From Laetmonice hystrix (taxonomy: Eukaryota): a stretch of DNA of 64,000 nucleotides. Made by a program: the position numbers and the translations under genes. Location of the stretch: positions 17,300,001 through 17,364,000 of the forward strand of contig OZ249436.1 in NCBI GenBank assembly GCA_965235115.1. The letters are read 5' to 3'. The stretch's first letter is position 1, and every line of letters begins with the position of its first letter. This document shows, piece after piece, positions 298 to 52,706 of this stretch. Below the pieces are notes generated by a model. That model was not told the DNA's origin and did no database searches. It saw only the letters and a list, made by a program, of their open reading frames with translations.

Positions 298-4136
<3,839 letters not shown>

Positions 4137-4614
4137 CGTCTCGAGTTTACGAACCGGATGTATCACCTCTACAAGGAACAAAAAGGAAGAAAGAGAATGA
4201 TGAAGAGTGAAATATCCGGCTACAGGACAGACCTAGGGTCTATAAAAAGGTCCCTTGACAAAGTCGTTCTCTACGCACATGTAGGCCTATAGAGTCTACA
4301 ATTACAATTGACAACGCAAATGTAAAAATGGTAACTCGGGTCTAGCCCTACAACTGAGTAGGCCAGTCCGTCAGCCTAAAAATGTAGGTAGACCTACTAA
4401 CCAAATATGATGTCCTGTATATGGGCTTCCTTCACGTTGGAGCGATTGTAGGAGAATGGATACTCTCTCTTTGGCTTTCGTTACTTATATACATGTATAG
4501 GCCTACCTCACCTTGCTTAGAGAGAGCCCCTTATTAATCCTCTCTAGCCTGTATAATCCTTGTGATAATCGGTATACCACTCTTAAACCGATTGGTGTCC
4601 CTTAGGCTTAGAGC

Positions 4615-30548: not shown

Positions 30549-33500
30549 CTGGAAAGAAAGAACACTTTCTTAGAGCACAGATACATTGTACAATGTCTCC
30601 ACAATATTAGAGAATACATCAAGGTGGGCGTCCACTTTCCCATCTTCATCCGATTTCCCATCCTATAATTAAAAAAATCTATCAAAAATTGTGTTTACAA
30701 CAAATCTTTCCAGTCATAGTATGCCAGAACAATGCACATTTTCACCTATAATTCTTTTAAAAAATATTTTATCTAGAGAGAGATCAGATGAAAATCGCCC
30801 GACGCCCGCTTTTATAGATGCGGGGGGGGGGGGGGGGGGGGTGGACGGTGGGGCGTGGACAGTGGGAGTGTTGAGAGTGGGGTGTGGGGTGTTGAAAGTG
30901 AGATGTGGGGTGTGGACAGGGGGGTGTGGGGTGTTGACAGCGGGGTGTGGGCTGTTGACAGTGGGGTGCGGGGTGTGGACATTGGGGTATGGGGTGTGGA
31001 CAGTGGGTGTTGACAGTGGGGTGCGGGGTGTTGACAGTGGGGTGTGGGGTGTTGACAGTGGGGTGTGGGGTGTTTAGTGGGGTGTTGGCAGTGGGGTGTG
31101 GGGTGTTGAGAGTGCGGTGTGAGGTGTTGACTGTGGAGTGTTGAGAGTGGGGTGTGGGGTGTTGAGAGTGGGGTGCGGGATGTTGAGAATGGGGTGTGGG
31201 GTGTTGAGAGTGGGGTGTGGGGTGTTGAGAGTGGGGTGTGGGGTGTTGAGTGTTGAGTGCGGGGTGTGGACAGTGGATTGTGGGGTGTTGAGAGTGGGGT
31301 GTGGGGTGTTGACTGTGGGGTGCGGTGTGTTGACAGTGGGGTGTGGGGTGTTGACAGTGGGGTGTGGACATTGGGGTATGGGGTGTTGACAGTGGGGTGC
31401 GGTGTGTTGACAGTGGGGTGTGGACAGTGGGGTGTGGGGTGTTGACAGTGGGGTGTGGACAGTGGGGTAGGGGGTGTTGAGAGTGGAGTGTGGGGTGTGG
31501 ACAGTGGGGTGTGGACAGTGGGGTGTGGGGTGTTGACAGTGGGGTGTGGACAGTGGGGTAGGGGGTGTTGAGAGTGGAGTGTGGGGTGTGGACAGTGGGG
31601 TGTGGACAGTGGGGTGTGGACAGTGGGGTAGGGGGTGTTGACAGTGGGGTGTGGGGTGTTGACAGTGGGGTGCGGTGTGTTGACAGTGGGGTGTGGACAG
31701 TGGGGTCTGGGGTGTTGAGAGTGGAGTGTGGGGTGTGGACAGTGGGGTGTGGGGTGTTGAGAGTGGGGTGTGGACAGTGGGGTGTGGGGTGTTGACAGTG
31801 GGGTGTGGACAGTGGGGTGTGGGGTGTTGACAGTGGGGTGTGGACAGTGGGGTCTGGGGTGTTGAGAGTGGAGCGTGGGGTGTGGACAGTGGGGTGTGGA
31901 CAGTGGGGTGTGGACAGTGGGGTAGGGGGTGTTGACAGTGGGGTGTGGACAGTGGGGTAGGGGGTGTTGACAGTGGGGTTTGGGGTGTTGAGAGTGGAGT
32001 GTGGGGTGTGGACAGTGGGGTTTGGGGTGTTGAGAGTGGAGTGTGGGGTGTGGACAGTGGGGTGTGGGGTGTTGACTGCGGGGTGCGGGGTGTTCATAGA
32101 AGGGTACAAGGCTTCATACCGTACAGCATGCTTTCTCCGTAAGACTCGATCGACTCCTCCTCTAGATCATTTTCCTCCATGACGGCGCCCTTCAGTCCCA
32201 GCAACCAGTAGGTGGCGATATCAACCTGTTAAAAAGGTACAATCAACCGTCACGGTATCCATGGTGACACGGTGACCGTGAGACCGCCATGACGCCACGG
32301 TACCCCTGGTGACACGGTGACCGTGAGACCGCCATGACGCCACGGTACCCATGGTGACACGGTGACCGTGAGACCTCCATGACGTCACGGTATCCATGGT
32401 GACACGGTGACCGTGAGACCGCCATGACGTCACGGTACCCATGGTGACACGGTGACCGTGAGACCTCCATGACGTCACGGTATCCATGGTGACCGTGAGA
32501 CCTCCATGACGCCACGGTACCCATGGTGACACGGTGACCGTGAGACCTCCATGACGTCACGGTATCCATGGTGACCGTGAGACCTCCATGACGCCACGGT
32601 ATCCATGGTGACACGGTGACCGTGAGACCTCCATGACGCCACGGTATCCATGGTGACACGGTGACCGTGAGACCGCCATGACGTCACGGTACCCATGGTG
32701 ACACGGTGACCGTGAGACCGCCATGACGCCACGGTACCCATAGTGACACGGTGACCGTGAGACCTCCATGACGTCACGGTACCCCTGGTGACACGGTGAC
32801 CGTGAGACCGCCATGACGCCACGGTACCCATGGTGACACGTTGACCGTGAGACCGCCATGACGTCACGGTACCCATGGTGACACGGTGACCGTGAGACCG
32901 CCATGACGTCACGGTACCCATGGTGACACGGTGACCGTGAGACCGCCATGACGTCACGGTACCCATGGTGACACGGTGACCGTGAGACCGCCATGACGTC
33001 CGTATGAACCAGATCGAGGTTCCTAGATCTTGACCTCTAAAGTAGACATAATGCAGTATAATTGCCAGGCAGGCCTCTTGAAGCGTAACGACTGTAAAAG
33101 GACACCGACCTTCATATTTGGTTTGTCGGCCGTCCTCTGCAGCATTTCGAAGCCACCCAGTTCACTCAGCAAACCATACGTAGTTTCACTTATGTGTATC
33201 CGGTTAGCTGTAAGAGGGAGGCAAGTTAATGACGTCAGTCAAATATTCTGTTCAGGCTATTAGAAGCGATTTTTTCTAGAATTATGGAATTTCCAGGTAT
33301 ATCTTTGTTATCTCTAAATCTGGGCCCTTTAAATCAACTGGTTACCATCCAGCGTCTACGTCAGTGGACACATGGACGTGGTTACAGCGTCTACGTCAGT
33401 GGACACATGGACGTGGTTACAGCGTCTACGTCAGTGGACACATGGACGTGGTTACAGCGTCTACGTCAGCAGACTACATGGACCCGGTTATACAAGCACT

Positions 33501-36500
33501 TAGTAAGCACCGTTTTACATTCTTTGACTTCCGGAAGTGTATCTTACCGCGTCCGCTTGATTCCATCATGGAGGCGATGTTAACCGTCTTACCAAACAGG
33601 CAGTACCTGGGCATCTTGGTTCCCACCACGCCGGCAACAACTGCCCCTACAAAACAAACACAGGGCGGCTTGAACACAGGGTACCTGGGCATCTTAAATG
33701 TCCTTTGGGTTTATAGTCCTTTGAGATATGAAAATATGTGAAAATATGTATGATTCTGGCATATTATGACTGGAAAGATTTTTTGGAAACACAATTTAGA
33801 TTAAAAAAAATATATCGGATAAGAAATCGAATGAAGATCGGGACAGTGTAAGCCCACGTTTGGAAAAACCAGGCTCGGCCATGCCCCGCCCCCCTTCCAA
33901 GAGATCCCTCGGGAATCCCCCGGTTATTTCCGCTCAAAAGTAACCTCGGGGGAATTCAGCGGCATCTTGGGCATTGCATCATGTGTACATTGAGCCAGGA
34001 CTATGATCATGCGAGGGTGATTGGGGTATTTGGTCTGCATCAGGCATGGTAGCAACTGAAATATGGGGTATTTGGTCTGCATCAGGCATGGTAGCAACTG
34101 AAATATGGGGTATTTGGTCTGCATCAGGCATGGTAGCAACTGAAATATAGGTCTAGTGGAGGTTTACCGGAGTGACAGCCGATGCGGAGCCGGAAGTTGG
34201 TGTCCGGAAGGTGCTCAATCTTGATAGTTCCGATAATGGTCATCAGGTCGATTGACATCATGGCGATCTCTGCTGCGTGGCGCTTCCCGTTCCGATGTGG
34301 CAACCCTTGAATTGTCGTTAGGTAGATAATTGAGAAGGTCGACAAGTTCAAAACACAACCTAATGTAACAATAATATAGAAAACTTTATAACTTTTTGAT
34401 ATTTTTACTAAGGAATAATCAATATCCTCGTTTCATGTCCAAACCTGACACTCTGCGCAGGCATACCTCCGACTTTCACGTTCATAATACAAACCTGTTA
34501 AAGCAGAGGTAAAATACCTAACAGAATAATAATACCCGTATGAAATCTATGAAATCATCGACATCCGATCGAGCTATAGTTACAGCTCCACCCTGTGTTG
34601 GGTCTCGTGCTCCGATCATCTTCACAGCGCGAAGATGTCGACATTAGGGGAAAACACGATCGTCTTTTTCAATAGGAGGTGATTTCTTCTGCCGTTTTCA
34701 GTATGTAAACAACATCAAATGAGGTAACTAGTGATGCCGTTGACTATGGACTCTAAGTATCACACAAGTATATTTTTAGAATGTCTGTCTGAAACCTTGA
34801 TCAATTTTTACCTCCACTTTAATGAGCGCTAGGGAATAGGGTTGAAGCAGCAGTACTATGCACCAACAGGTATCAAGGGTTCGTGAAACACCCAGGGTTC
34901 GTGCCCAGCCAGTCGGGTCACTGGGCAGAGAGGCTGGGCAACCCACAAGGAGCTGCTTGTGGCGGCGGTTGAACCCCCACTTGGTCAGCGACTCCCCCCA
35001 ACCCTTCCCACCCACACCACACCTCAACCATACCCCGCCCCCCGGTTTACAGGAGGTCATGCGACCGTACCTGAGGCGACCATGTAGGCGTCACCGATAG
35101 TCTCCACCTTGTAGATGTCGTATTTCTGGATCCTCTTGTCGAACACGGTGTAGAGACCACCAAGCATGGCGACAACTTGAAGCGGAGAGCTTCGAGCCGA
35201 CAGCGACGTGAACCCAACAACGTCCGAGAAAAACAGGGTCGCCTGGAACGGGGCAAATATATCAGTGACACGGGACGGGTACCCTCGAGTGTGAGAAGAT
35301 ATCAGTGACACGGGACGGGTCCCCTGGAGTGGAGGAGAGATATCAGTGACACGGGACGGGTCCCCTGGAGTGTGGGAAGATATCAGTGACACGGGACGGG
35401 TCCCCTGGAGTGGAGGGGAGATATCAGTGACACGGGACGGGTCCCCTGGAGTGGAGGAGATATCAGTGACACGGGACGGGTCCCCTGGAGTGGGGAAAAT
35501 ATCAGTGACACGGGACGGGTCCCCTGGAGTGGAGGAGATATCAGTGACACGGGACGGGTCCCCTGGAGTGTGAGAAGATATCAGTGACACGGGACGGGTC
35601 CCTGGAGTGGGGAAAATATCAGTGACACGGGACGGGTACCCTGGAGTGGAGGAGAGATATCAGTGACACGGGACGGGTCCCCTGGAGTGTGAGAAGATAT
35701 CAGTGACACGGGACGGGTCCCCTGGAGTGTGAGAAGATATCAGTGACACGGGACGGGTACCCTGGAGTGGAGGAGATATCAGTGACACGGGAGGGGTCCC
35801 CTGGAGTGTGAGAAGATATCAGTGACACGGGACGGGTCCCCTGGAGTGTGAGAAGATATCAGTGACACGGGACGGGTCCCCTGGAGTGGAGGAGAGATAT
35901 CAGTGACACGGGACGGGTCCCCTGGAGTGGAGGAGAGATATCAGTGACACGGGACGGGTCCCTGGAGTGTGAGAAGATATCAGTGACACGGGACGGGTCC
36001 CCTGGAGTGTGAGAAGATATCAGTGACACGGGACGGGTACCCTCGAGTGTGAGAAGATATCAGTGACACGGGACGGGTCCCCTGGAGTGTGAGAAGATAT
36101 CAGTGACACGGGACGGGTACCCTGGAGTGGAGGAGATATCAGTGACACGGGACGGGTCCCCTGGAGTGGAGGAGAGATATCAGTGACACGGGACGGGTAC
36201 CCTGGAGTGTGAGAAGATATCAGTGACACGGGACGGGTCCCCTGGAGTGTGAGAAGATATCAGTGACACGGGACGGGTCCCCTGGAGTGTGAGAAGATAT
36301 CAGTGACACGGGACGGGTCCCCTGGAGTGGAGGAGATATCAGTGACACGGGACGGGTCCCCTGGAGTGTGAGAAGATATCAGTGACACGGGACGGGTCCC
36401 CTGGAGTGGAGGAGAGATATCAGTGACACGGGACGGGTCCCTGGAGTGTGAGAAGATATCAGTGACACGGGACGGGTACCCTGGAGTGGAGGAGATATCA

Positions 36501-39500
36501 GTGACACGGGACGGGTACCCTGGAGTGGAGGAGAGATATCAGTAATACGGGACGGGTCCCCTGGAGTGGAGGAGAGATCAGTAACATGGGACGGGTACCC
36601 TGGAGTGGAGGAGAGATATCAGTAACACGGGACGGGTCCCCTCGAGTGGAGGAGAGATATCAGTAACATGGGACGGGTACCCTGGAGTGGAGGAGAGATC
36701 AGTAACATGGGACGGGTACCCTGGAGTGGAGGAGAGATATCAGTAACACGGGACGGGTCCCCTCGAGTGGAGGAGATATCAGTGACACGGGACGGTCCCT
36801 GGAGTGGGAAAGATATCAGTGACACGGGACGGGTACCCTGGAGTGGAGGAGATATCAGTGACACGGGACGGGTCCCCTGGAGTGGAGGAGAGATATCAGT
36901 AACACGGGACGGGTCCCCTGGAGTGGAGGGGAGTGTGACACGGGACGGGTCCCCTGGAGTGGAGGGGAGATATCAGTGACACGGGACGGGTCCCCTGGAG
37001 TGTGAGAAGATATTAGTGACACGGGACGGGTACCCTGGAGTGGAGGGGAGATATCAGTGACACGGGACGGGTCCCCTGGAGTGTGAGAAGATATCAGTGA
37101 CACGGGACGGGTCCCCTGGAGTGGAGGAGATATCAGTGACACGGGACGGGTACCCTGGAGTGTGAGAAGATATCAGTGACACGGGACGGGTCCCCTGGAG
37201 TGTGAGAAGATATCAGTGACACGGGACGGGTCCCCTGGAGTGTGGGAAGATATCAGTGACACGGGACGGGTCCCCTGGAGTGTGGGAAGATATCAGTGAC
37301 ACGGGACGGGTCCCCTGGAGTGTGGGAAGATATCAGTGACACGGGACGGGTCCCCTGGAGTGTGAGAAGATATCAGTGACACGGGACGGGTCCCCTGGAG
37401 TGTGGGAAGATATCAGTAACACGGGACGGGTCCCCTGGAGTGGAGGAGAGATATCAGTAACACGGGACGGGTCCCCTGGAGTGGAGGAGAGATATCAGTA
37501 ACACGGGACGGGTCCCCTGGAGTGGAGGAGAGATATCAGTGACACGGGACGGGTACCCTGGATTGCAGGAGATATCAGTGAAATGGGACGGGTACCCTGG
37601 ACTGGGACAGAGATATTAGCGACACAGGATAGCGCCCCTGCAGTGGGCGAGATACCAGTGACACCGGACAACGTTATACACAGATAAGGAATCATTGCAC
37701 CCCAAGCAGGCCTTTAGGGGTGGGGTAGGTACTTTGGTTACTTACAAACACAGCTAACGACGAGACGTCCCCAGGACGTGACGTCATTATGACGTACCTG
37801 ATCGTAGTTCTCCGCTTCCACCGATTGGTTGCACCGCAGTCGGAGCGCCACCGTCTTGGGCAGAAGTTTGTACACCAGCGTATCTGTACGCTTCTTCTCC
37901 TTGTTTAACTCCTTCGTCCTTCAACAAACATTTTACACACGTTTGGAGAAAAGGGTACCAACCCAGGTGACAAAAAAGGAACCAACAAGGTAAATACCCC
38001 GTATATCTAGAGCAATATATCTAGAGCAATTATGTCAGCGTTTTTAAGCTATTGCCTCTGGAACATTTCTCTGTTCTGGAACAGTTCTCTGTTCTGGAAT
38101 ATTTCTCTGTTCAGAAATTCAATCTACCATATTCTAGGGTTAACGGTTCAGGGGAAAATGCTGGTCGGGGAGAACAATACCCCCCCAGGTTTATCAGATG
38201 AGGGATCCATACCCCTGTAACCCTTGCCCCTGTTACCTTTGGGCGAGGATACCAGAGTATCGCTGGATGTCCGAGGTAAGCACCAACACGGCATTGATAA
38301 TGACCGGGCAGATGAGGATGATAAAACCGAACAAGGCACCAATCAAAGCCGTCGTCTCAAGTTCATTTTTTCGGTTCTTCTCCACCGTCGTTAGAATGCG
38401 TTCCTCCAATAGGTTCTGCTGCAACACGGAGAAACTTTTGACCCGAGCGAAATCTGCGAACCAAGTATCGAAATCGAAGACCCGAATAGCAACATCTGAC
38501 CCAAGGAGCAAACTCTGTTACCCGAGTAGCGAAATTTGTGACCCGAGGATCGAAATCTTCCAGCCGAGAATGTTTGTACACTTCGGCCACAGGTAGTTCT
38601 CTGTGCATTAGAGTCTACGTTTGACCCCCCCCCCCATCCATACCTGATCCCGGCCTCCGGCCTGAATGATATGTTTGTTAATTCCCCAGTTTTCCCAGGC
38701 TACTCACCTGGATATCGAGCAGGGCGTCCATGAGCCAAGTCACGTTTTCATACCACATGGTGCTTTTCGACAAAGATGGCTGGAAGCGGCCGATGCCGTG
38801 CTTTCGTATCTTTTCACGCCATAGTTTGATGTCGTTATATTCAGGCCTTCCCGCCAGCGTCAAGTTGAAAACAGAATACAGCTCGTCCGAGTATTTAAAT
38901 GCATCTTCCAGTGTTGATCTGGCCACGTCCTGGTCCTCGGTGAAGGTGAGAAAATCGTCGCGGCTCTCAAAGCCCCCTTTAGCGTAGAATACAGCGCCAC
39001 GAACGCGCTCCAAGCCGAGCGACTCGCGACTCGAGATGATATGTTGGAGTGCGACGATCTTCTTCCACACGCTACCCGTCTGGATCTCCGTTATCGACTC
39101 GTAGAAGAACTCCACCAACTGATCGATGATTTGCGAGTAGAAAAGCAGCTCTTTGCCGACACTTGGCGGGCTGAGGTCGATGTTATACCGATGGAGGTTG
39201 ACCACGGCCTGTATACCGCCGGCGGTTGTCAGCACTCGCCGGATCGGGGTCTTCATCACAATCCGGGGCAGGGTAGGCACGGAGAACAGGGCATCGTCTG
39301 TCTTGGGGTACACTTTCAGCAGGAACGTCTTCGTCTCGGGGCTGATGGATGATACATAGAGGGCGCTCATGTCGCGCTCCCGCTGGAGGTGGCTCATGAA
39401 TAGTGACAAGTCGACGGAGTTGCGGATCGTTTCGCGGATTCCGCCCGACCTGTAGATCTCATGCAGGCGTAGCCCGAATATGGTACCACCTAGCGCGAGG

Positions 39501-40082
39501 AGTCCGAGTATCGGCACCAGGAATATACCCAGCATCCGAATCAACTGGAGATGTTTTCCACGCCTCGTCAGTGGGTTCCCTGCATCAAGGACGGTCAGGC
39601 GTAACTATGGCGACACGTAAACAGTTGGCGGAAAGACACGGGGGTTAATGAAAAGGGTGGGGGATCGAAATGAGCTTTTAAATCGGAAGTTAAATACCGC
39701 GCTAAGGAGTTTCTGGGGGGGGGGGGGGGCGGATTCACTAATTGAAATTACGTCTCTTCATATTGGACCGGAGAATCAGTACATCTATAATCAGTATGCC
39801 TAATCAGAATCAGTTGAAGACCAAGAGAGTCCGTAACAAACAAATAGGGGCCTATAGCAAGATAGAAAGGACCAACCGACCTTTGCAGTATTTGTCGAGG
39901 CAGAAAGTACCATCGAAGTTATGTTTGGCGAAAATTTCGATGAGGGCTGAGTCCAGTTCCAAGGACGTCGTGGAGTTGGAGTGGAGACTGTCGGACGAGT
40001 GGTTGACATGTTCTGTACCAGGCCCGAAAGAGGGAGCCACTATAGTTTTCTGACCATGCGCCATCTTTCTCAAGAACCACAT
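30460..40082 (-). CDS. NIT-domain transmembrane guanylyl cyclase (NIT-GC), ~682 aa, 10 coding exons
   Basis: Ten exons totalling 2049 nt splice in frame to TGA at 30460. Domains in order: TM1 ([22 protein letters not shown]), NIT motifs [13 protein letters not shown] and [13 protein letters not shown]2 ([21 protein letters not shown]), S-helix [18 protein letters not shown], cyclase [46 protein letters not shown]. Confidence 0.9.
30841..32095. repeat. G-rich compound minisatellite
   Basis: gtggggtgtggacagtggggtgtggggtgttga(c/g)a variants. Confidence 0.95.
32120..32225 (-). CDS. NIT-GC exon 9
   Basis: [35 protein letters not shown]. Confidence 0.8.
32248..33000. repeat. minisatellite, 45 bp unit containing TGACGTCA
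   Basis: ccatgacg(t/c)cacggtacccatggtgacacggtgaccgtgagacc(g/t). Confidence 0.95.
33110..33207 (-). CDS. NIT-GC exon 8
   Basis: [33 protein letters not shown]. Confidence 0.88.
33350..33480. repeat. 35 bp tandem repeat, ~3.5 copies
   Basis: cagcgtctacgtcagtggacacatggacgtggtta. Confidence 0.9.
33548..33646 (-). CDS. NIT-GC exon 7
   Basis: [33 protein letters not shown]. Confidence 0.95.
34023..34148. repeat. 42 bp tandem repeat, 3 copies
   Basis: ggggtatttggtctgcatcaggcatggtagcaactgaaatat. Confidence 0.92.
34168..34305 (-). CDS. NIT-GC exon 6
   Basis: [21 protein letters not shown]...RLRIGCHS. Confidence 0.93.
35071..35242 (-). CDS. NIT-GC exon 5: cyclase
   Basis: [12 protein letters not shown]...[14 protein letters not shown]. 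Confidence 0.95.
35258..37600. repeat. 2.3 kb minisatellite, ~40 bp unit
   Basis: gatatcagtgacacgggacgggtcccctggagtg(tgagaa/gaggaga). Confidence 0.97.
37798..37918 (-). CDS. NIT-GC exon 4: signalling helix
   Basis: [40 protein letters not shown]. Confidence 0.92.
38237..38418 (-). CDS. NIT-GC exon 3: TM2
   Basis: QNLLEERIL...[17 protein letters not shown] acceptor. Confidence 0.88.
38708..39579 (-). CDS. NIT-GC exon 2: TM1 + NIT domain
   Basis: [18 protein letters not shown]...[16 protein letters not shown]; tgcag| ... |gtgagt. Confidence 0.9.
39911..40082 (-). CDS. NIT-GC coding exon 1 (acceptor at 40110; start codon uncertain)
   Basis: [10 protein letters not shown]...FAKHNFD; weak donor G|GTACTT, phase 1 fits the next exon. 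Confidence 0.55.
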
Positions 40083-43000
40083 TAGGCCTATGGGTTTGCC
40101 GTTTTGTGCACTGGAGATAAAAACGGTTTATTTTTGTAATAATACGATAATCGGTTAAATTAATAAGGCACCCTATATATACTGCGGCGACGAGCACATC
40201 GGATAAAGGGCAGATCTCGACAAATTCTAAAGCGAAGCTAGGCCTAATTAGCCATAGGGGGCTATAGGGGCAAGCGGGTCGGGCCTTCCCCTGGAAAAAA
40301 ACAATTTGGAAGGCCAAAAAAACTATATTTCCCGGCATCTGGATATTTATTTTCTGATGGAAATGAGCCTGCCGGACCACTTTGATGTGTCACATTTTCC
40401 GGTGGATCACAGGGGGAGGGGCAGCTATCCCCCTGTATCCCCCGGTCGCTATACAGCTACGGCCCTGTCAAGACACTGATTATTACCAGAGTTTCTTTAT
40501 TAATGAATACATTAAAACTGAATATACCAGGATCAGTGGCGGATCCATGCAGGGAGGGGCGCAGGAGGCGCGAGCCCCATATTTTGGGCAGACTAATCTT
40601 TAAAATCTGGTAGTAGGCCTAAATTAATGGTCATTATCCCATCCCCTACAGGGGGATGGGATCTTCAGATTGTACGGTTTCGTCTTCCCTATTATTATTA
40701 TCCCATCCCCTACGGAGGGGATGGGATTTAGAAATTGTGTGGTTTCGTCTTCTGTATTATTTTTGGCGTCGTAGTTGTAGTAGTAGTAGTAGTAGTAAAC
40801 TTGTATGTCTATCTCAGTCAATTTTCAAAATATCAAAATGAAATTTGGCACACATCTTGACAATGACAAAGTATGGTCAGGCATCGAATCCTGACGTCAT
40901 GTGACGTCACGTCATGACGTGATGACGTCAAACGTCTTATGAAAATTGAAGCCATTTTTAAGCTCATATTGGGAATTTTTTTAAAAAACCCGTCATGCCC
41001 TCATAATGGGCCAAAGGTGCTGCCTCAATTTGAGTCTTGATTTGACCTTTGACCTTTGACCTTAGGGTGAACTGAGTTATTGGTCACAAATCGGTTAAAT
41101 TGCTTCTCCTTCTCTATTTTTTGGTAAAATTCGACAATATTCGGCAAAAACACTCTCTAACGAAAGGTTCACAATACGATTCCAAGGATTAGCGATTTGA
41201 CCTATTTTCGCCGAACCACGTGACTTTGAAGTTTGTCACTTTTGACATTTTTTTCTAAAACTGCTTTAGTCATATAGGAATCGTGTATTTGGTCACTAGA
41301 TATGTGCTGCTATTCACGATTGGTCACTTTGCATATTTCTTTTCATAAATTTACCAATATTTTTTTTATTTATGATGAAATAATGTAATCTGACGTTGAC
41401 AGGCTCTACCTTAAACCTGTTTAAGATAGCCATATACAAATACAACAATTACAAAGTGTATAGATTCAGGTATACCACTGACTGTTTAGTTCTTGTTTTG
41501 GAAAGGTAATATGGCCAGAATTGTAAGTTTTAATGGGTATAGTCTTCACTATAATATTTTTACACTCTGACAGGTGGCATCTCTGAATACACAAATCACC
41601 TGCTGGGAGGCCAGAGCCAGGGTCGGCAGAGGGTTACGTAAGCGCTGGTGATAAGGGCCGGCCAGGCGGCCGGGTCGGCAGGCGGGTTGTGACTCCGCCC
41701 CCTCCCTCCCAGTCAGGGTCGGTTTGGTGGAGGATGATTGTGTATTCAGAACTGACATAACTGAATTAGCTGTGCCTTTGAACTGTAGATATAACTGTCT
41801 AATGCATTTGTTTTTAAATCTTACATAGGAGAGCTGAATAAAACACTAGGCTACTACTGATTGTTGGCTGTGGAGTTCAAGAGACACGGCAAACTTTTGG
41901 CCAGCTGCACTTGGTTTCAGCGTGAGCCAACAGCCTGGTGTGGATGACATTCGCACCTATTGTTCTTGAGTCTGTGAGATTTTTCATGATGCCCGTAACG
42001 GGTATAATCCATATAATCCATAAGGACTATAATATTTCATAATGTCAAAAGGATACTTAGTAACTTCCATGTGAATGGAAATGACGCTATTGTTGGGACA
42101 ATAATTAAATGAGAGAAAAATATAGGTAATGATAGAAAACCATTCGGGAAATGGGACCTACCTGTATTGCTTGGCAATCAGAGTCTCTAGATATAATTAC
42201 GATTTTAATGTATCCTTCCACAATGATTAATATATCAAAATAGGTAGATATACCATGCAGTAGATCTCTATGATCCCTTTCGACATGTCAGGGGCGTATC
42301 TGCACTCTTTCTTTTTGAAGAATTGACATTATTGTTAGGCTAGGTCTAAATACAGCCACGTATCTAGGATTTTCAGCAGGGTGGTCGCCGAAATGTTTTT
42401 TTTTTAAATTAGAAGCCTTTTATGGACCCATTTAGTGCACCATATTTTGTGTAGGCCTATTCATCACTCAACCAGTTTAAAATAGGCAGAAGGCTTTGCA
42501 CCTGTTCGTTCGATGGTGTGCCGCTGAATCTAAGGAAAAATGAATCTATGCTCTGGGGGAGCAGGAGAGGGGGTCCAACCCCCGGACCCCTACATGCGCC
42601 TGAAATACTTTGAGAAACTTCACATCTAGCTCCAGAAGTAACGTTCTTTGACTTTCTAAATTCAATCCCCCCCCCCCGCGCCCATGTTCGCCTTGCACCT
42701 TTGGTGCCCCTCCTTTCTTGCGGTACTGGATCTGAGCCTGCATGAAAGCAGGATCATGACGTATGAGATTATAATGATATTAACATTATTTTCCTAAGCC
42801 TCCAACTCGTAAACGGTGAAAGATTGAGCCATGGTTACTATTGAACAGGAATAGGAAGTCATATATCACGTGACTCCCCGGGGATGGGATCAATTGTGGT
42901 ATCGCCACAACGTGTCTAGTTATCCCATCCCCTACGGAGGGGATGGGATTTAGAAATTGTGTGGTTTCGTCTTCTGTATTATTATCCCATCCCCTACGGA

Positions 43001-46000
43001 GGGGATGGGATTTAGAAATTGTGTGGTTTCGTCTTCTGTATTATTTTTGGCGTCGTAGTTGTAGTAGTAGTAGTAGTAGTAGTAGTAAACTTGTATGTCT
43101 ATCTCAGTCAATTTTCAAAATATCAAAATGAAATTTGGCACACATCTTGAAAATGACAAAGTATGGTCAGGCATCGAATCCTGACGTCATGTAACGTCAC
43201 GTCATGACGTGATGACGTCAAACGTATTATGAAAATTGAAGCCATTTTTAAGTTCATATTGGGAATTTTTTTTAAAAACCCGTCATGCCCTCATAATCGG
43301 CCAAAGGTGCTGCCTCAATTTGAGTCTTGATTTGACCTTTGACCTTTGACCTTAGGGTGAACTGGGTCATTGGTCACAAATCGGATAAATTGCTTCTCCT
43401 TCTCTATTTTTTGGTAAAATTCGACAATATTCGGCAAAAACACTCTCTAACGAAAGGTTCACAATACGATTCCAAGGATTAGCGATTTGACCTATTTTCG
43501 CCGAACCACGTGACTTTGAAGTTTGTCACTTTTGACATTTTTTTCTAAAACTGCTTTAGTCATATAGGAATCGTGTATTTGGTCACTAGATATGTGCTGC
43601 TATTGACGATTGGTCACTTTGCATATTTCTTTTCATAAATTTACCAATATCTTTTTTATTTATGATGAAATAATGTAATCTGACGTTGACAGGCTCTACC
43701 TTAAACCTGTTTAAGATAGCCATATACAAATACAACAATTACAAAGTGTATAGATTCAGGTATACCACTGACTGTTTAGTTCTTGTTTTGGAAAGGTAAT
43801 ATGGCCAGAATTGTAAGTTTTAATGGGTATAGTCTTCACTATAATATTTTTACACTCTGACAGGTGGCATCTCTGAATACACAAATCACCTGCTGGGAGG
43901 CCAGAGCCAGGGTCGGCAGAGGGTTACGTAAGCGCTGGTGATAAGGGCCGGCCAGGCGGCCGGGTCGGCAGGCGGGTTGTGACTCCGCCCCCTCCCTCCC
44001 AGTCAGGGTCGGTTTGGTGGAGGATGATTGTGTATTCAGAACTGACATAACTGAATTAGCTGTGCCTTTGAACTGTAGATATAACTGTCTAATGCATTTG
44101 TTTTTAAATCTTACATAGGAGAGCTGAATAAAACACTAGGCTACTACTGATTGTTGGCTGTGGAGTTCAAGAGACACGGCAAACTTTTGGCCAGCTGCAC
44201 TTGGTTTCAGCGTGAGCCAACAGCCTGGTGTGGATGGCATTCGCACCTATTGTTCTTGAGTCTGTGATATTTGTCATGATGCCCGTAACGGGTATAATCC
44301 ATATAATCCATCAGGACTATAATATTTCATAATGTCAAAAGAATACTCAGTAACTTCCATGTGAATGGAAATGACGCTATTGTTGGGACAATAATTAAAT
44401 GAGAGAAAAATATAGGTAATGATAGAAAACCATTCGGGAAATGGGACCTACCTGTATTGCTTGGCAATCAGAGTCTCTAGATATAATTACGATTATAACG
44501 TATCCTTCCACAATGATTAATATATTAAAATAGGTAGATATACCATGCAGTAGATCCCTTTTGACATGTCAGGGGCGGATCTGCACTCTTTCTTTTTGAA
44601 GAATTGACAAATATTATTGTTAGGCTAAGTCTAAATACAGCCACGTGTCTAGGATTTTCAGCAGGGTGCTCTCTGAAATTTTTTAAAATAAGAAGCTCTT
44701 AGACGCGATTTTTCCACCTTTTATGGACCCTTTTAGTGCATTATATTTTGTGTAGACCCCTATTCATCACTCAACGAGTTTAAAATAGGCGGAATGCTTG
44801 GCACCTGTTCGTTCGATGTTGTTCTGTTGAATCTAAGGGAAAAAGAATCTGTGCTCTGGGGAAGCAGGAGAGGGGGTACAACCCCCGGACCCCTATCGAC
44901 ATGCGCCTGAAATACTTTGAGAAACTTCACATCTCGCTCCAAAAGTAACGTTCTTTGACTTTCTAAATTCAGCCCCCCCCCCGCGCCCATGTTCGCCTTG
45001 CACCTTTGGTGCCCCTCCTTTCTTGCGGTACTGGATCTGAGCCTGCATGAAAGCAGGATCATCACGTATGAGATTATAATGATGTTAACATTATTTTCTT
45101 AAGCCTCCAACTCGTAAACGGTGAAAGATTGAGCCATGGTTACTATTGAACAGGAATAGGAAGTCATATATCACGTGACTCCCCGGGGATGGGATCAATT
45201 GTGGTATCGCCACAACGTGTCTAGTTTTTGGCGTCGTAGTTGTAGTAGTAGTAGTAGTAGTAAACTTGTATGTCTATCTTAGTCAATTTTCAAAATATCG
45301 AAATGAAATTTGGCACACATCTTGACAATGACGAAGTATGGTCAGGCATCGAATCCTGACGTCATGTGACGTCACGTCATAACGTGATGACGTCAAACGT
45401 ATTATGAAAATTGAAGCCATTTTTAAGCTCATATTGGGAATTTTTTTAAAAACCCGTCATGGCCTCATAATCGGCCATAGGTGCTGCCTCAATTTGAGTC
45501 TTGATTTGACCTTTGACCTTTGACCTTAGGGTGAACTGGGTCATTGGTCACAAATCGGTTAAATTGCTTCTCCTTTTCTATTTTTTAGTAAAATTAGACA
45601 ATATTCGGCAGAAACACTCTCTAACGAAAGGTTCACAATACGATTCCAAGGATTAGCGATTTGACCTATTTTCACCGAACCACGTGACTTTGAAGTTTGT
45701 CACTTTTGACATTTTTTTCTAAAACTGCTTTAGTCATATAGGAATCGTGTATTTGGTCAATAGGTATGTGCTGCTATTGACGATTGGTCACTTTGCATAT
45801 TTCTTTTCATAAATTTACCAATATCTTTTTTATTTATGATGAAATAATGTAATCTGACGTTGACAGGCTCTACCTTAAACCTGTTTAAGATAGCCATATA
45901 CAAATACAACAATTACAAAGTGTATAGATTCAGGTATACCACTGGCTGTTTAGTTCTCGTTTTGGAAAGGTAATATGGCCAGAATTGTAAGTTTTAATGG

Positions 46001-46209
46001 GTATAGTCTTCACAATAATATTTTTGCCGTCTGACAGTTGACATCTCTGAATACACAGATCTCCCACTGTGATGCGGCCGCCGGTCCCTGGCCAGGCCGG
46101 GAGAGAGTTACGTAAGTGCTGGTGATAAGGGCCGGCGCCGGCCCGCCGGCCCGCCGGCCGGCCTACTCCCCCCTCCCTCCCAGTGAGGGAGGAATATGAT
46201 TGTGTATTC

Positions 46210-46414
46210 AGGTTCTATCCCCCATGATAACTTTCCACGAAATGTTTGGGCAGGGGTTAGGGTTAATGTCAGGGATAGGGGTAGGGTAGGGATATGTTTT
46301 GGGGAGGTGTAGGAACTGGGGTTAGGGGTTAGGGGTTAGGGATAAGGTCAGGGCCATGGATCTTTCCTTTCCACCAAATTTCGTGGAGTTTAAGTTATCA
46401 TGGGCGATATACCT
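46210..46414. mobile_element. 205 bp MITE with 6 bp TSD, TTAGGG-rich core
   Basis: AGGTTCTATCCCCCATGATAAC / GTTATCATGGGCGATATACCT; TSD GTATTC; empty site visible in the paralogous unit at 41742-41747. Confidence 0.85.
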
Positions 46415-49400
46415 GTATTCAGAACTGACTTAGCTGTGCCTTTGAACTGTAGGTGTAACTGCCTAATGCATTTGTTTTTGAATCTTATGTAGGAGAGCTG
46501 AATAAAACAATACTACTGATTGTTGGTTGTGGAGTTCAAGTGACACGACAAGCTTTTGGTCAGCTGCACTTGGTTTAGCCTGAGCCAACAGTCTGGTGTG
46601 GATGACATTCGCACCTATTGGTAAAGTTTCATGATGTATGACTACGTGTTGGCTAAATGGCGAGAGATAGAAGTGAACGAACGGTGTGCACAGTAGACAG
46701 GTATGCAGTCGTCCTGGCGAGCGGCACACACAATAGATTGCAGCCATCACTTGAGCGGGTCTGCGGAAGGGAGAAGGGGAACGCTCTGTGAGAAATACTT
46801 AAGGACTGTTTATGGAAGATGTACCTTCTCAGTCATATAACATGCCAGCTATCGGGCGGCAGCTCTCAATCAAAGGAGCCGGTCAGGGGGCGGTCAGTTA
46901 ATTGGACGTGGGCCACCGGCCAATGACCAGTGACCATCCTTTAAACTAGGACTGGGGCAAAAACGTGAACGAGGGGATATATAAGAGCACCAAGAGAGAG
47001 AGAGAGAGAGAGACTAGGGGAGAAGGAGCAGAGAAAGGACAGAGATATAGATTTGACTATGAGGAACATATAGACACTGACTGCCTAGTGACATATTGGT
47101 CGAAGCGGGACAACCGTGTGCCTCAGGAATAAAAACTTCAAAACTCAAGCGACGACTCTACTACCAAAAAGAAATGTTAACAAGGGTGAAGAGAAAATTA
47201 GCACTGTAATTAGACACATTGAACTGTTATGTTATGACGCTATCATTTTTGTATAATACTAAAATATATAGGAAAGCACTTGTCAGTGCACATGTCAACT
47301 TGCCATGGGCAGATGCGCCCAGAAAAAAATGAATGCCGGGCGGTAGTTTTGCGCTAGCAGCGAAGGCGCAAGGTTTTCAGTTGGCAAGGGGTGCAGATGG
47401 GGAGATATTTTTTCAGATGATAGGCCTGATAAAAATTCTTGCCGGGCAGCACTTAAACCATTTTAGTTTTGTGCCAGGCGGCTAAAATCGGTGCCGGGTG
47501 GCGCCGCCCGGCGTGGGCACATCCCTCTATACCCCCACTCTTTCTTTTTGAAGAATTGACAAAAAATTATTGTTAGGCTAGCCACGGGTCCAGGATTTTC
47601 AGCAGAGGGGTCTCGGGAAATCTTTAAAAATTAAAAGCTCTTAGAAGCGATTTTCCGCCTTTTAGGGCCATTTTAGGGCATTATATTTTGTGGATTCGTC
47701 ACTCAACCAGTTGAAAATAGCCGGAATGCTTTGCACCTGTTCGTTCCGTGTTGAAGGGAAAAAGAATCTATGTTCTGGCGGAGAATGGGGTCTACCGACA
47801 CGCGCCTTAAATACTTTGAGAAACTTTACATCTATCTCCAGAAATAGCATTTTTTGACCTTCTAAATTCCAGCAAAGAACCTCGATACCATATCGAGGTT
47901 CTCTGATTCAAGTCCCCGCCCACATGTTCGCCTCGCACCTCTGGTGCCCCTCCTTTTGTGCAGTGCTGGATCTGTGCATGCCTGCGGGAGGAGCATGACG
48001 TTATGATGTTATCATTATTTCTTCAGCCTATAACTTGTAAACGGTGCAAGATGGAGCCATGGTTACTATTGAACAGGAATAGGAAGTCATATACATTGTA
48101 TGCTCTTTCAATTGACACCAAGATTTATGATGTAATGTAAGGCCCCTATCATTATTATGTCATAATGATGCCATTGACATCTTCGAAGGTTTCTAAATCC
48201 TAAACCATTCAAGATAGAGCAATGGTTACCATTTAACCCTAATAGGAAGTCATATATGATCTTTCACTTGACATTTTTTTACGTGACTTGACTGGCATCA
48301 TAAGGTGTCATAGGTATTTTTCTCAGGGCTATAACTTGTAAATGGTAGAAGTTAGAGCTATAGTTACTATTAGCCTAAACAGTAATAGGAAGTCATATAG
48401 CCTACATGCTCTTTCATTTGAGACCAAGATTCATTACGCAGTATGACGTGTCACCTCATAATTACGTCATTGGCATCTTCTAAAGCTTATAGGTCATTAA
48501 CTGTGCAAGATCGAGCCATAGTTTACCCTACTCAGAACATGTCATATAGGCCTATCACGTGACTCCCCGGGGATGGGATCAATTGTGGTATCGCCACAAC
48601 GTGTCTAGTTATCCCATCCCCTACGGAGGGGATGGGATTTAGAAATTGTGTGGTTTCGTCTTCTGTATTATTTTTGGCGTCGTAGTTGTAGTAGTAGTAG
48701 TAGTAGTAAACTTGTATGTCTATCTTAGTCAATTTTCAAAATATCGAAATGAAATTTGGCACACATCTTGACAATGACGAAGTATGGTCAGGCATCGAAT
48801 CCTGACGTCATGTGACGTCACGTCATAACGTGATGACGTCAAACGTATTATGAAAATTGAAGCCATTTTTAAGCTCATATTGGGAATTTTTTTAAAAACC
48901 CGTCATGGCCTCATAATCGGCCATAGGTGCTGCCTCAATTTGAGTCTTGATTTGACCTTTGACCTTTGACCTTAGGGTGAACTGGGTCATTGGTCACAAA
49001 TCGGTTAAATTGCTTCTCCTTTTCTATTTTTTAGTAAAATTAGACAATATTCGGCAGAAACACTCTCTAACGAAAGGTTCACAATACGATTCCAAGGATT
49101 AGCGATTTGACCTATTTTCACCGAACCACGTGACTTTGAAGTTTGTCACTTTTGACATTTTTTTCTAAAACTGCTTTAGTCATATAGGAATCGTGTATTT
49201 GGTCAATAGGTATGTGCTGCTATTGACGATTGGTCACTTTGCATATTTCTTTTCATAAATTTACCAATATCTTTTTTATTTATGATGAAATAATGTAATC
49301 TGACGTTGACAGGCTCTACCTTAAACCTGTTTAAGATAGCCATATACAAATACAACAATTACAAAGTGTATAGATTCAGGTATACCACTGGCTGTTTAGT

Positions 49401-49648
49401 TCTCGTTTTGGAAAGGTAATATGGCCAGAATTGTAAGTTTTAATGGGTATAGTCTTCACAATAATATTTTTGCCGTCTGACAGTTGACATCTCTGAATAC
49501 ACAGATCTCCCACTGTGATGCGGCCGCCGGTCCCTGGCCAGGCCGGGAGAGAGTTACGTAAGTGCTGGTGATAAGGGCCGGCCCCCGGCCGGCCTGCCGG
49601 CCTACTCCCCCCTCCCTCCCAGTGAGGGAGGAATATGATTGTGTATTC

Positions 49649-49853
49649 AGGTTCTATCTCCCATGATAACTTTCCACGAAATGTTTGGGCAGGGGTTAGG
49701 GTTAATGTCAGGGATAGGGGTAGGGTAGGGATATGTTTTGGGGAGGTGTAGGAACTGGGGTTAGGGGTTAGGGGTTAGGGATAAGGTCAGGGCCATGGAT
49801 CTTTCCTTTCCACCAAATTTCGTGGAGTTTAAGTTATCATGGGGGATATACCT
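49649..49853. mobile_element. second copy of the 205 bp MITE (duplicated with its host)
   Basis: same termini and GTATTC TSD as 46210-46414. Confidence 0.85.
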
Positions 49854-52706
49854 GTATTCAGAACTGACTTAGCTGTGCCTTTGAACTGTAGGTGTAACTG
49901 CCTAATGCATTTGTTTTTGAATCTTATGTAGGAGAGCTGAATAAAACAATACTACTGATTGTTGGTTGTGGAGTTCAAGTGACACGACAAGCTTTTGGTC
50001 AGCTGCACTTGGTTTAGCCTGAGCCAACAGTCTGGTGTGGATGACATTCGCACCTATTGGTAAAGTTTCATGATGTATGACTACGTGTTGGCTAAATGGC
50101 GAGAGATAGAAGTGAACGAACGGTGTGCACAGTAGACAGGTATGCAGTCGTCCTGGCGAGCGGCACACACAATAGATTGCAGCCATCACTTGAGCGGGTC
50201 TGCGGAAGGGAGAAGGGGAACGCTCTGTGAGAAATACTTAAGGACTGTTTATGGAAGATGTACCTTCTCAGTCATATAACATGCCAGCTATCGGGCGGCA
50301 GCTCTCAATCAAAGGAGCCGGTCAGGGGGCGGTCAGTTAATTGGACGTGGGCCACCGGCCAATGACCAGTGGCCATCCTTTAAACTAGGACTGGGGCAAA
50401 AACGTGAACGAGGGGATATATAAGAGCACCAAGAGAGAGAGAGAGAGAGAGACTAGGGGAGAAGGAGCAGAGAAAGGACAGAGATATAGATTTGACTATG
50501 AGGAACATATAGACACTGACTGCCTAGTGACATATTGGTCGAAGCGGGACAACCGTGTGCCTCAGGAATAAAAACTTCAAAACTCAAGCGACGACTCTAC
50601 TACCAAAAAGAAATGTTAACAAGGGTGAAGAGAAAATTAGCACTGTAATTAGACACATTGAACTGTTATGTTATGATGCTATCATTTTTGTATAATACTA
50701 AAATATATAGGAAAGCACTTGTCAGTGCACATGTCAACTTGCCATGGGCAGATGCGCCCAGAAAAAAATGAATGCCGGGCGGTAGTTTTGCGCTAGCAGC
50801 GAAGGCGCAAGGTTTTCAGTTGGCAAGGGGTGCAGATGGGGAGATATTTTTTTCAGATGATAGGCCTGATAAAAATTCCTGCCGGGCAGCACTTAAACCA
50901 TTTTAGTTTTGTGCCAGGCGGCTAAAATCGGTGCCGGGTGGCGCCGCCCGGCGTGGGCACATCCCTCTATACCCCCACTCTTTCTTTTTGAAGAATTGAC
51001 AAAAAATTATTGTTAGGCTAGCCACGGGTCCAGGATTTTCAGCAGAGGGGTCTCGGGAAATCTTTAAAAATTAAAAGCTCTTAGAAGCGATTTTCCGCCT
51101 TTTAGGGCCATTTTAGGGCATTATATTTTGTGGATTCGTCACTCAACCAGTTGAAAATAGCCGGAATGCTTTGCACCTGTTCGTTCCGTGTTGAAGGGAA
51201 AAAAGAATCTATGTTCTGGCGGAGAATGGGGTCTACCGACACGCGCCTTAAATACTTTGAGAAACTTTACATCTATCTCCAGAAATAGCATTTTTTGACC
51301 TTCTAAATTCCAGCAAAGAACCTCGATACCATATCGAGGTTCTCTGATTCAAGTCCCCGCCCACATGTTCGCCTCGCACCTCTGGTGCCCCTCCTTTTGT
51401 GCAGTGCTGGATCTGTGCATGCCTGCGGGAGGAGCATGACGTTATGATGTTATCATTATTTCTTCAGCCTATAACTTGTAAACGGTGCAAGATGGAGCCA
51501 TGGTTACTATTGAACAGGAATAGGAAGTCATATACATTGTATGCTCTTTCAATTGACACCAAGATTTATGATGTAATGTAAGGCCCCTATCATTATTATG
51601 TCATAATGATGCCATTGACATCTTCGAAGGTTTCTAAATCCTAAACCATTCAAGATAGAGCAATGGTTACCATTTAACCCTAATAGGAAGTCATATATGA
51701 TCTTTCACTTGACATTTTTTTACGTGACTTGACTGGCATCATAAGGTGTCATAGGCATTTTTCTCAGGGCTATAACTTGTAAATGGTAGAAGTTAGAGCT
51801 ATAGTTACTATTAGCCTAAACAGTAATAGGAAGTCATATAGCCTACATGCTCTTTCATTTGAGACCAAGATTCATTACGCAGTATGACGTGTCACCTCAT
51901 AATTACGTCATTGGCATCTTCTAAAGCTTATAGGTCATTAACTGTGCAAGATCGAGCCATAGTTTACCCTACTCAGAACATGTCATATAGGCCTATCACG
52001 TGACTCCCCGGGGATGGGATCAATTGTGGTATCGCCACAACGTGTCTAGTTCTTTGCGTCGTAGTAGTAGTAGTAGTAGTAGTAAACAGTGGCGTCTATC
52101 TCAGTCAGTTTTCAAGATATCTCAATCAAATTTGGCACACATCTTGACCATGACAAGGACTGGTCAGACAATGAGTTGTGACATATCACGTGACGTGACG
52201 TATGACGTCACGTCATGACGTTCATATTGGGAATTTCCAAACCCCATCATGGCGTTTTAATCAGGCAAGGGTCTAGTCTAACATGGACCCTTCATTTGTC
52301 ATTTGACCTTGAACTTTGGGAGAACTGGGTCCTCAGTCACAAATCTCTTAAATCGCTACTCCTTCTTCATTTTTTGGTGAAATTCGACAATATTAGGCAG
52401 ACGGACTCTCTAACATGAGCTTGTCTCAAATCATCAAAAGATAAGCGATTTGACTAATATTCGCTGAATCACGTGACTTTGAAATTTCGAAAAATTGTCA
52501 ATTTTCTAGAACTTGTAAACGGTGCCAGATTTGGCATTGGTTACTATTACACACAGATAAGAAGTCATTATGCTCTTTTATGATATTTTTTTTTTCAGGT
52601 CACGTGACCATTTTTAAAAATTAGAGGGAAAAAACAAAAAGAAAAAGAAACGTGACTCGGCCTGGGATTGAACGCGGGACCCTTCCGGTAGAAGTCCAAA
52701 AAAATA

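Follow-up and report, generated by a model that had tools for sequence, protein, structure and literature searches.

A half-degenerate cyclase site in a NIT-domain guanylate cyclase gene of Laetmonice hystrix and in a lophotrochozoan clade of its relatives

Results

The window analyzed here is a 64,000-nucleotide stretch of the Laetmonice hystrix genome (GenBank assembly GCA_965235115.1, contig OZ249436.1, positions 17,300,001 to 17,364,000 of the forward strand), and all coordinates below count from its first letter unless a contig is named. On its minus strand, at 32094-40064, it carries an intact gene of nine coding exons for a NIT-domain membrane guanylate cyclase (NIT-GC), the predicted product of which keeps the metal-binding half of a class III cyclase site and has lost the transition-state arginine and the GKG of the hairpin. 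Judging from sequence comparison, this half-degenerate site is the signature of an old, lophotrochozoan-wide NIT-GC subfamily and is not private to the window gene. The combination tentatively points to a metal-donating subunit, similar to the alpha chain of soluble guanylate cyclase (sGC), that would pair with another NIT-GC in a heterodimer.

Catalytic residues of the window protein

The residues of the cyclase exon at 33548-33646 were assigned from gap-free phmmer alignments in a search of every solved chain. The exon aligns to YCLFGDTVNTASRMES in ANP receptor 1 (9bcv and others) and GC-C (8fx4), and the counterpart of its motif in Cyg12 (3et6) is FCLFGDTVNTASRMES. The stretch aligned in 3et6, 9bcv and 8fx4 is FGDTVNTASRMES, and compared with it the NxxxR motif of the window protein is not canonical: the Asn is kept (33579-33581), whereas the transition-state Arg is replaced by Met (33567-33569), as a first-pass annotation of this DNA had claimed. 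An Asp-to-Lys change at 33588-33590 and a Thr-to-Ile change are also present. The same annotation described the metal-binding side as intact and the residues of guanine selection and the RIG Arg as retained, and the codons bear it out. Both metal aspartates are present, Asp1 (in FFSD) at 35222-35224 and Asp2 (in KVETIGDAY) at 35090-35092, as are the guanine-recognizing Glu (KVET, 35102-35104) and Cys (YCLF, 33600-33602) and the Arg of RLRIG (34184-34186). In the 665-amino-acid product the two aspartates are residues 460 and 504, the Met is residue 583, and the Lys that ends the exon at 33110-33207 is residue 622.

The hairpin is split by the last intron, has the canonical length of 24 residues according to our parse, and lacks GKG. 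The loss of the full KGKG that had been reported is therefore right for GKG, but for the hairpin Lys it depends on the alignment. The first hairpin Lys is an Asn in the ungapped alignment and is Lys 33110-33112 if the alignment is anchored on the shared phase-0 intron. This Lys ends the exon at 33110-33207 and directly precedes the intron, which in canonical paralogues falls after the first Lys of VK/GKG (the slash marks the junction), and the same phase-0 position is found in the same-genome paralogues L055, L059-L062 and L066. The loss of the hairpin Lys thus hinges on where the gap is placed. The hairpin string, which had been put within 33110-33646, does exist; however, it spans the junction to the exon at 32094-32225, outside that interval. 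A micro-exon missed in the hairpin was considered and set aside, given the stop codon upstream of the last exon and L055, which has the same intron position and a similarly short hairpin.

A contig from sequencing run X2 spans the exon at 33548-33646, and its only listed difference is an intronic G>T at 33672. Since run X2 and the likely source of the assembly share one sample, the contig is not independent and gives a weak check on assembly error; as far as it goes, it speaks against the error at the substitutions that had been named as a way to overturn the claim.

A lophotrochozoan clade shares the half-degenerate site

A profile search with a threshold of E <= 1e-10 yielded 5161 proteins. 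The best 120 of these, each with PF08376, were aligned with the window protein and with 14 paralogous loci of its genome, represented by approximate models. FastTree was run on 127 rows, leaving out two near-duplicates of P0003 and the fragments P0048, P0068, P0085, P0086, P0102 and P0107. It recovered a clade of 56 rows (support, 100) that holds bivalve, gastropod, chiton, nemertean (Tubulanus), brachiopod (Lingula) and annelid (Capitella) proteins, and grouped the window protein with two Capitella proteins and its own paralogues L052-L055 (support, 98). A quick IQ-TREE analysis of 71 rows, from which the NxxxR and hairpin columns had been removed, likewise placed the 29 sampled clade rows on one side of a branch, with a Shimodaira-Hasegawa-like approximate likelihood ratio test (SH-aLRT) value of 100, and the window protein in a five-row set (SH-aLRT, 98). 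A profile search with an annelid-subclade profile yielded no relatives closer than about 45% identity.

Residues were then tallied over 58 clade rows (the window protein, 4 of its own paralogues and 53 database proteins, including the two near-duplicates of P0003) and over 77 rows outside the clade, which include three fragments that probably belong to it:

Metal Asp1: 58/58 clade rows; 73/77 other rows
Guanine-recognizing Glu: 58/58 clade rows; 72/77 other rows
Arg of RIG: 58/58 clade rows; 71/77 other rows
Guanine-recognizing Cys: 58/58 clade rows; 67/77 other rows
Metal Asp2: 55/58 clade rows; 62/77 other rows
Asn and Arg of NxxxR both kept: 0/58 clade rows; 56/70 other rows with letters at both positions
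GKG-like hairpin: 0/42 parsed clade rows; 30/33 parsed other rows

At the Asn and Arg positions, the 58 clade rows read SK (20), NK (16), TR (6), SR (3), NM (2) or other combinations (11), and Met at the Arg position is also found in the clade members P0009 and P0023. The first-pass annotation had proposed conservation of the Arg-to-Met change among orthologues as a check. What is fixed throughout the clade is the loss on the Arg side; most members carry Lys rather than Met. The Asp-to-Lys change, which had been counted as a further sign of degeneration, is a real substitution, but it lies at a variable, noncatalytic position that is Glu in 37 clade rows, Asp in 11, and Gln, Val, Asn or Lys in the remaining 10. 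The hairpin is 32 residues long in 34 of the 42 parsed clade members, compared to 24 in the canonical form. This extension of about 8 residues is absent from the window protein (24) and from L055 (23) and may be specific to the mollusc, nemertean and brachiopod members. Of the 26 parsable sequences in an additional set of 27 proteins, 25 were canonical, cnidarian and placozoan ones included, so that the canonical site would most simply be the older state.

Gene model and protein architecture

The model of the window gene is based on open frames, splice signals and similarity to relatives. Every intron has GT-AG borders and the frame is open throughout, in agreement with the earlier statement that both were intact, and the predicted product has 665 amino acids. 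The interval 33110-33646, to which the first-pass annotation referred, corresponds to two exons (33548-33646 and 33110-33207). The coding exons, in the order of transcription, are as follows:

39881-40064, minus strand: first coding exon, with the ATG at 40062-40064, the cytosolic N-terminus MAHGQK...DKYCK and the donor GTCGGT
38708-39579, minus strand: exon 2, with the first transmembrane segment and the NIT sensor domain
38237-38418, minus strand: exon 3, with the end of the NIT region and the second transmembrane segment
37798-37918, minus strand: exon 4, with the signaling helix or linker, the C-terminal end of Pfam HNOBA (E 1.6e-05) and GT-AG borders
35071-35242, minus strand: exon 5, with the start of the cyclase domain, Pfam Guanylate_cyc PF00211 (E 6.8e-19)
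34168-34305, minus strand: cyclase exon with the RLRIG Arg
33548-33646, minus strand: cyclase exon with the NxxxR region, PF00211 (E 9.9e-12)
33110-33207, minus strand: cyclase exon, with Lys 33110-33112 as its last codon and the donor GTCGGT
32094-32225, minus strand: last exon, ending in ...CTLL and the stop codon, with TYWL not preceded by GKG

The first exon was located by tblastn with the N-termini of relatives and joins the second in frame (...CKG/NPLT, compared with CQG/NPIT and CRGNPIT in relatives). Exon 2 matches Pfam NIT PF08376 with an E value of 6.7e-18 and 66.4 bits (cut-off, 24.9) over profile positions 4-230 of 239, and in the alignment with relatives its invariant columns are Q, E, R, L, R, Y, G, W, G and G. 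For exon 3, the better of two candidate acceptors, TTTCTCCGTGTTGCAG/CAG, is preferred. The upstream acceptor at 38514 would add 32 residues in frame (697 amino acids) and was rejected, as the relatives lack the extra 32-33 residues. The preferred acceptor lies in a CAGCAG tandem at 38415-38421 (NAGNAG type), and isoforms with or without one Gln are possible. Scanned alone, the exon at 34168-34305 matches PF00211 with an E value of 2.6e-04 and 21.1 bits, slightly below the cut-off of 21.9. The last exon cannot extend further 5′ because a stop codon lies immediately upstream of its acceptor in the same frame.

The order of domains is thus an N-terminal tail, a transmembrane segment, NIT, a transmembrane segment, a signaling helix and a class III cyclase. 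The two predicted transmembrane segments are hydrophobic stretches, one on each side of the NIT domain, that were read from the translation. Between the second of them and the cyclase domain lies only the signaling helix, at the end of the HNOBA profile. The cyclase domain is C-terminal and matches PF00211 in three exons, and a kinase-homology domain is absent.

Of the 80 columns with 90% or higher conservation across the family, the predicted protein matches 72, and 5 of its 8 deviations are conservative. For comparison, the degenerate paralogues L056 and L057 from the same genome keep 61/73 and 47/70 invariant columns. By its open frame and retained columns, the window gene is not decaying.

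NIT-GC paralogues in the same genome

Searches of the 627-Mb genome gave 21 matches for the NIT exon and at least 78 for the peptide of the exon at 33548-33646. N...R is retained in 26 of the 29 other best-scoring homologues of the latter exon, which makes the Arg-to-Met change in the window gene more than chance. The three exceptions are a NIT-GC on contig C11 (Ser and Leu), a receptor cyclase of the kinase-homology type (Asn and Ser) and an sGC-like gene (Asn and Lys). The approximate models of the 14 NIT-GC loci show the following sites:

L059, L061, L063, L064 and L065/66: fully canonical
L060: Asp2 replaced by Glu; Asn, Arg and GKG retained
L062: Asp1 replaced by Asn; Asn and Arg retained
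L052-L054 (with L055, the closest paralogues of the window gene): Asp2 replaced by His or deleted, Asn replaced by Thr, Arg retained
L055: Ile...Arg at the NxxxR positions
L058: Tyr...Lys at the NxxxR positions
L056 and L057: heavily altered

Paralogues with an intact NxxxR, for which a search had been suggested, therefore do exist in this genome, where seven NIT-GC loci count as canonical. Elsewhere in the family, the nemertean NIT-GCs P0097 and P0099 have Asp1 replaced by Gly with N, R and GKG intact, and Asp2 is replaced by Glu in 12 rows of the family alignment. By residue pattern, the NIT-GC family holds both putative alpha-like forms, in which the Asp pair is kept and the Arg side is altered, and putative beta-like forms with the reverse pattern.

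Several of these loci have features of their own. L054 (plus strand) and L055 (minus strand) are convergent and about 19 kb apart on contig C30 (4723500-4747500), and L052 and L053 are identical models about 23.6 kb apart on the same contig (11278000-11309500). In L054 and L052/L053 the second metal Asp was lost as a His or as a two-residue deletion, and the Arg was kept. Four very similar NIT-GC copies with terminal branches of 0.008-0.045 are found on four contigs, namely, L060 (C10:1465500-1475400), L062 (C19:10049000-10058000), L061 (C3) and L059 (C6); L060 and L062 could be either young beta-like subunits or young pseudogenes. L056 and L057 are adjoining genes (C8:10586000-10612800) with heavily altered cyclase motifs, e.g., HYFLLGETVRMASRIK and YRYFVVGRTVNNAHKLMK. 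A NIT-GC outside the degenerate clade, L069/L070 (C11:26819300-26834000), reads FGETVSYASLMES, with Asn replaced by Ser, Arg by Leu and both aspartates intact; its pattern is, on the face of the alignment, an independent loss of the same Asn and Arg.

Surroundings of the gene

Four introns of the window gene contain minisatellites, at 35259-37669 (40 bp, 60.5 copies), 32248-33000 (45 bp, 17 copies), 33350-33490 (35 bp, 4 copies) and 34022-34148 (42 bp, 3 copies), which create many spurious long open reading frames (ORFs) on both strands. A tandem array of 21/35-bp units, about 1.2 kb long (30862-32094), begins right at the stop codon of the gene (32094) and contains minus-strand repeat ORFs of up to 460 amino acids (PHPTVNTP...); it is probably a 3′ untranslated region or a flanking satellite. 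Upstream of the gene, at about 40600-51700, near-identical sets of ORFs recur (41469-41633 and 43759-43923; 45933-46214 and 49379-49774; 46466-46798 and 49905-50237), which suggests a tandem duplication of blocks about 2.3 and 3.4 kb long. The neighboring gene, at 630-4232 on the minus strand, encodes a tektin (Pfam Tektin, E 2.3e-40 and 3.5e-23 in two ORFs).

Discussion

A class III cyclase site takes its two aspartates and a RIG-type Arg from one monomer, and the base-recognizing residues, the Asn, the Arg and the hairpin Lys from the other. In class III dimers each active site is accordingly built from both monomers (PMC5225109; here and below, this paper, PMC7400543 and the preprint 10.1101/2023.08.02.551600 are cited for the portions available to us). 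A homodimer of the window protein would have two sites, each without the transition-state Arg, and given this dimer architecture and the loss of the Arg, it would have no complete site. In a heterodimer, one complete site would be formed from the Asp pair of the window protein and the Asn, Arg and Lys of its partner, and the other would be a pseudo-site, an arrangement shared by the alpha/beta dimer of sGC and the C1/C2 pair of adenylyl cyclase. Candidate partners would be the canonical or the complementary, beta-like NIT-GC paralogues of the same genome. We therefore favor, as plausible while still short of probable, that the window protein is the metal-donating, sGC-alpha-like subunit of a predicted NIT-GC heterodimer. 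A pattern fixed across an old clade is what a specialized subunit would show. A broader suggestion, to be taken with more doubt, is that the old lophotrochozoan subfamily consists of dedicated alpha-type subunits that pair with canonical or beta-type NIT-GCs; these would act as membrane-bound, sGC-like receptors for nitric oxide (NO) or nitrite with one site and one pseudo-site, in an independent reinvention of the alpha/beta division of sGC.

Comparison with known systems

The window protein clusters inside the NIT-GC tree and has the organization of metazoan NIT-GCs, with a transmembrane segment, NIT (PF08376), a second transmembrane segment, a helix and a PF00211 cyclase, and no kinase-homology domain (Moroz et al. 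2020, PMC7400543). NIT-GCs have multiplied in this genome, in line with the expansions reported in molluscs and annelids (PMC7400543; 10.1101/2023.08.02.551600). Platynereis NIT-GC1 reportedly has a highly conserved cyclase domain and works alone (10.1101/2023.08.02.551600), whereas the window protein lacks the Arg and the GKG hairpin; the published NIT-GC1 morpholino 25-mer has no match with two or fewer mismatches in this genome. In the available portions of PMC7400543 and 10.1101/2023.08.02.551600 we found no discussion of catalytic-site degeneracy or of NIT-GC subunit pairing, and the word "heterodimer" occurs once in the former and not at all in the latter.

By its predicted features, the window protein resembles sGC alpha without being a member of it. 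The sGC alpha chain keeps the metal Asp pair, the Glu and the Cys, has the Arg of NxxxR replaced and lacks the KGKG hairpin. The asymmetric site of the window protein is thus the same in that the Asp pair is kept and Arg and KGKG are lost, with the reservation on the hairpin Lys given above, and the exon at 33548-33646 matches the sGC alpha chains 4ni2_A, 3uvj_A and 6jt0_A with E values of 1.6e-07 to 8.6e-07. The two differ in that the window protein retains the Asn, lacks the H-NOX/PAS N-terminus, is predicted to be membrane bound, has a NIT sensor and branches within the NIT-GCs. The same exon also matches AC2 C2 (1azs_B, E 5.8e-06). In the C1/C2 arrangement of mammalian membrane adenylyl cyclases, the Asp pair comes from one domain and the Asn, Arg and Lys from the other, with one active site and one pseudo-site; however, these halves are fused in one chain and make cyclic AMP, whereas the window protein has a single cyclase domain per chain and a predicted, Glu/Cys-based guanine specificity. 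In Caenorhabditis elegans, the membrane cyclases DAF-11 and ODR-1 reportedly function as an obligate heterodimer, both monomers providing residues that catalysis requires (PMC5225109). The logic proposed for the window protein is the same, in that two monomers each contribute essential residues to a single catalytic site. The nematode proteins are, in contrast, receptor cyclases with a kinase-homology domain whose pairing is backed by genetics and biochemistry (PMC5225109), and for the window protein, with its NIT sensor, the pairing is a prediction from residues.

Weighing the explanations

Several observations count against an alpha-like role in a heterodimer. The Arg position is Lys in 41 of the 58 clade rows and is strongly conserved as such in molluscs, which could mean that the catalytic face works with Lys and that homodimers of the clade are active; if so, the Met of the window protein may be a further, private change. 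Platynereis NIT-GC1, which may lie inside or outside the clade, makes cyclic GMP on its own in COS-7 cells (preprint 10.1101/2023.08.02.551600). Complementation by L052-L054 would be imperfect, as these also lack the Asn (Thr), and any of L052-L054, L060 and L062 may be a young pseudogene. The window gene has no other cyclase gene as a neighbor, and the nearest matches to its exon at 33548-33646 on the same contig are megabases away. Finally, the window protein is the 8th lowest of 130 rows for invariant columns kept, and its terminal branch is 0.81-0.91 in the two trees, versus medians of 0.13-0.34, in a part of the trees where annelid-type rows are sparsely sampled.

A rival reading is a working homodimer with a modified face, in which the Ser/Lys of the clade and its remodeled hairpin would still make cyclic GMP, perhaps slowly or under different regulation, and the Met would lower the activity further without abolishing it. 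We consider this rather unlikely; its chief support comes from the strongly conserved Ser/Lys and remodeled hairpin of the molluscs and from the activity of NIT-GC1 alone. The tight conservation of FGETVS[IV]A[AS]KMES and of the 32-residue hairpin across bivalves, gastropods and chitons indicates a face under selection, the guanine-recognizing Glu and Cys lie on that same face in all 58 rows, the Met recurs in P0009 and P0023, and NIT-GC1 is active by itself, with the reservation on its clade already given. However, the annelid-type subclade drifts at both positions (NM, MQ, HS, TR and IR in the window protein, P0049, P0100, L054 and L055), and free drift of this kind looks like a lost catalytic constraint. 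To our knowledge, all class III active sites characterized so far have the Asn together with the Arg, and mutations of these residues in adenylyl cyclase lower kcat 10- to 100-fold. Nor does retention of Glu and Cys prove catalysis, since sGC alpha keeps both in its pseudo-site. Less likely again is that the protein is a noncatalytic pseudo-cyclase, with a NIT sensor and a dimerizing domain, that modulates other cyclases, for instance through heterodimers of reduced activity, or binds a nucleotide allosterically. The loss of Arg and GKG would fit, as would the very large family with its 78 or more homologues of the exon at 33548-33646, and the degenerate L056 and L057 indicate that noncatalytic paralogues do arise in this genome. 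Yet 55-58 of the 58 clade rows, from molluscs, brachiopods, nemerteans and annelids, have retained the metal Asp pair and the RIG Arg, which is difficult to account for if these residues no longer serve a catalytic site.

Decay or error seems very improbable, whether the gene is taken as an incipient pseudogene with relaxed selection or the Met codon as misassembled. Such an origin would account for the long terminal branch, for W>L, W>F and N>G at three columns that are invariant in the family and for the weak GTCGGT donors of two exons, but it is at odds with nine exons that form a 665-codon frame without frameshift or stop and with GT-AG at every border, with the invariant columns kept and the mostly conservative nature of the deviations, and with the same half-site pattern fixed throughout the clade. 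The run X2 contig, weak as it is, adds no listed difference in the exon concerned. The alpha-like subunit of a heterodimer is thus the reading that we retain, at the strength given above.

Significance

An obligate heterodimeric membrane guanylate cyclase is not a new concept, as DAF-11/ODR-1 illustrates (PMC5225109), so that the first-pass annotation was right to regard a heterodimeric NIT-GC as undescribed only to the extent that no such proposal was found for NIT-GCs in the portions of PMC7400543 and 10.1101/2023.08.02.551600 at hand. What is new is that the half-degenerate site marks an old and widespread NIT-GC subfamily, which makes the alpha/beta hypothesis concrete and testable. The residue table given above also offers a simple way of sorting NIT-GCs into canonical, alpha-like and beta-like forms. 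NIT-GCs are recently recognized animal sensors of NO, nitrite and nitrate, and we know of only one, Platynereis NIT-GC1, that has been assayed so far. If a subfamily without a complete site of its own does exist, expression of single genes would give misleading negatives, and how many functional receptors molluscs, annelids, nemerteans and brachiopods have would be set by the coexpression of subunits. It would also be a second independent case, beside sGC and adenylyl cyclase, in which symmetric class III dimers have given rise to asymmetric pairs of a catalytic site and a pseudo-site.

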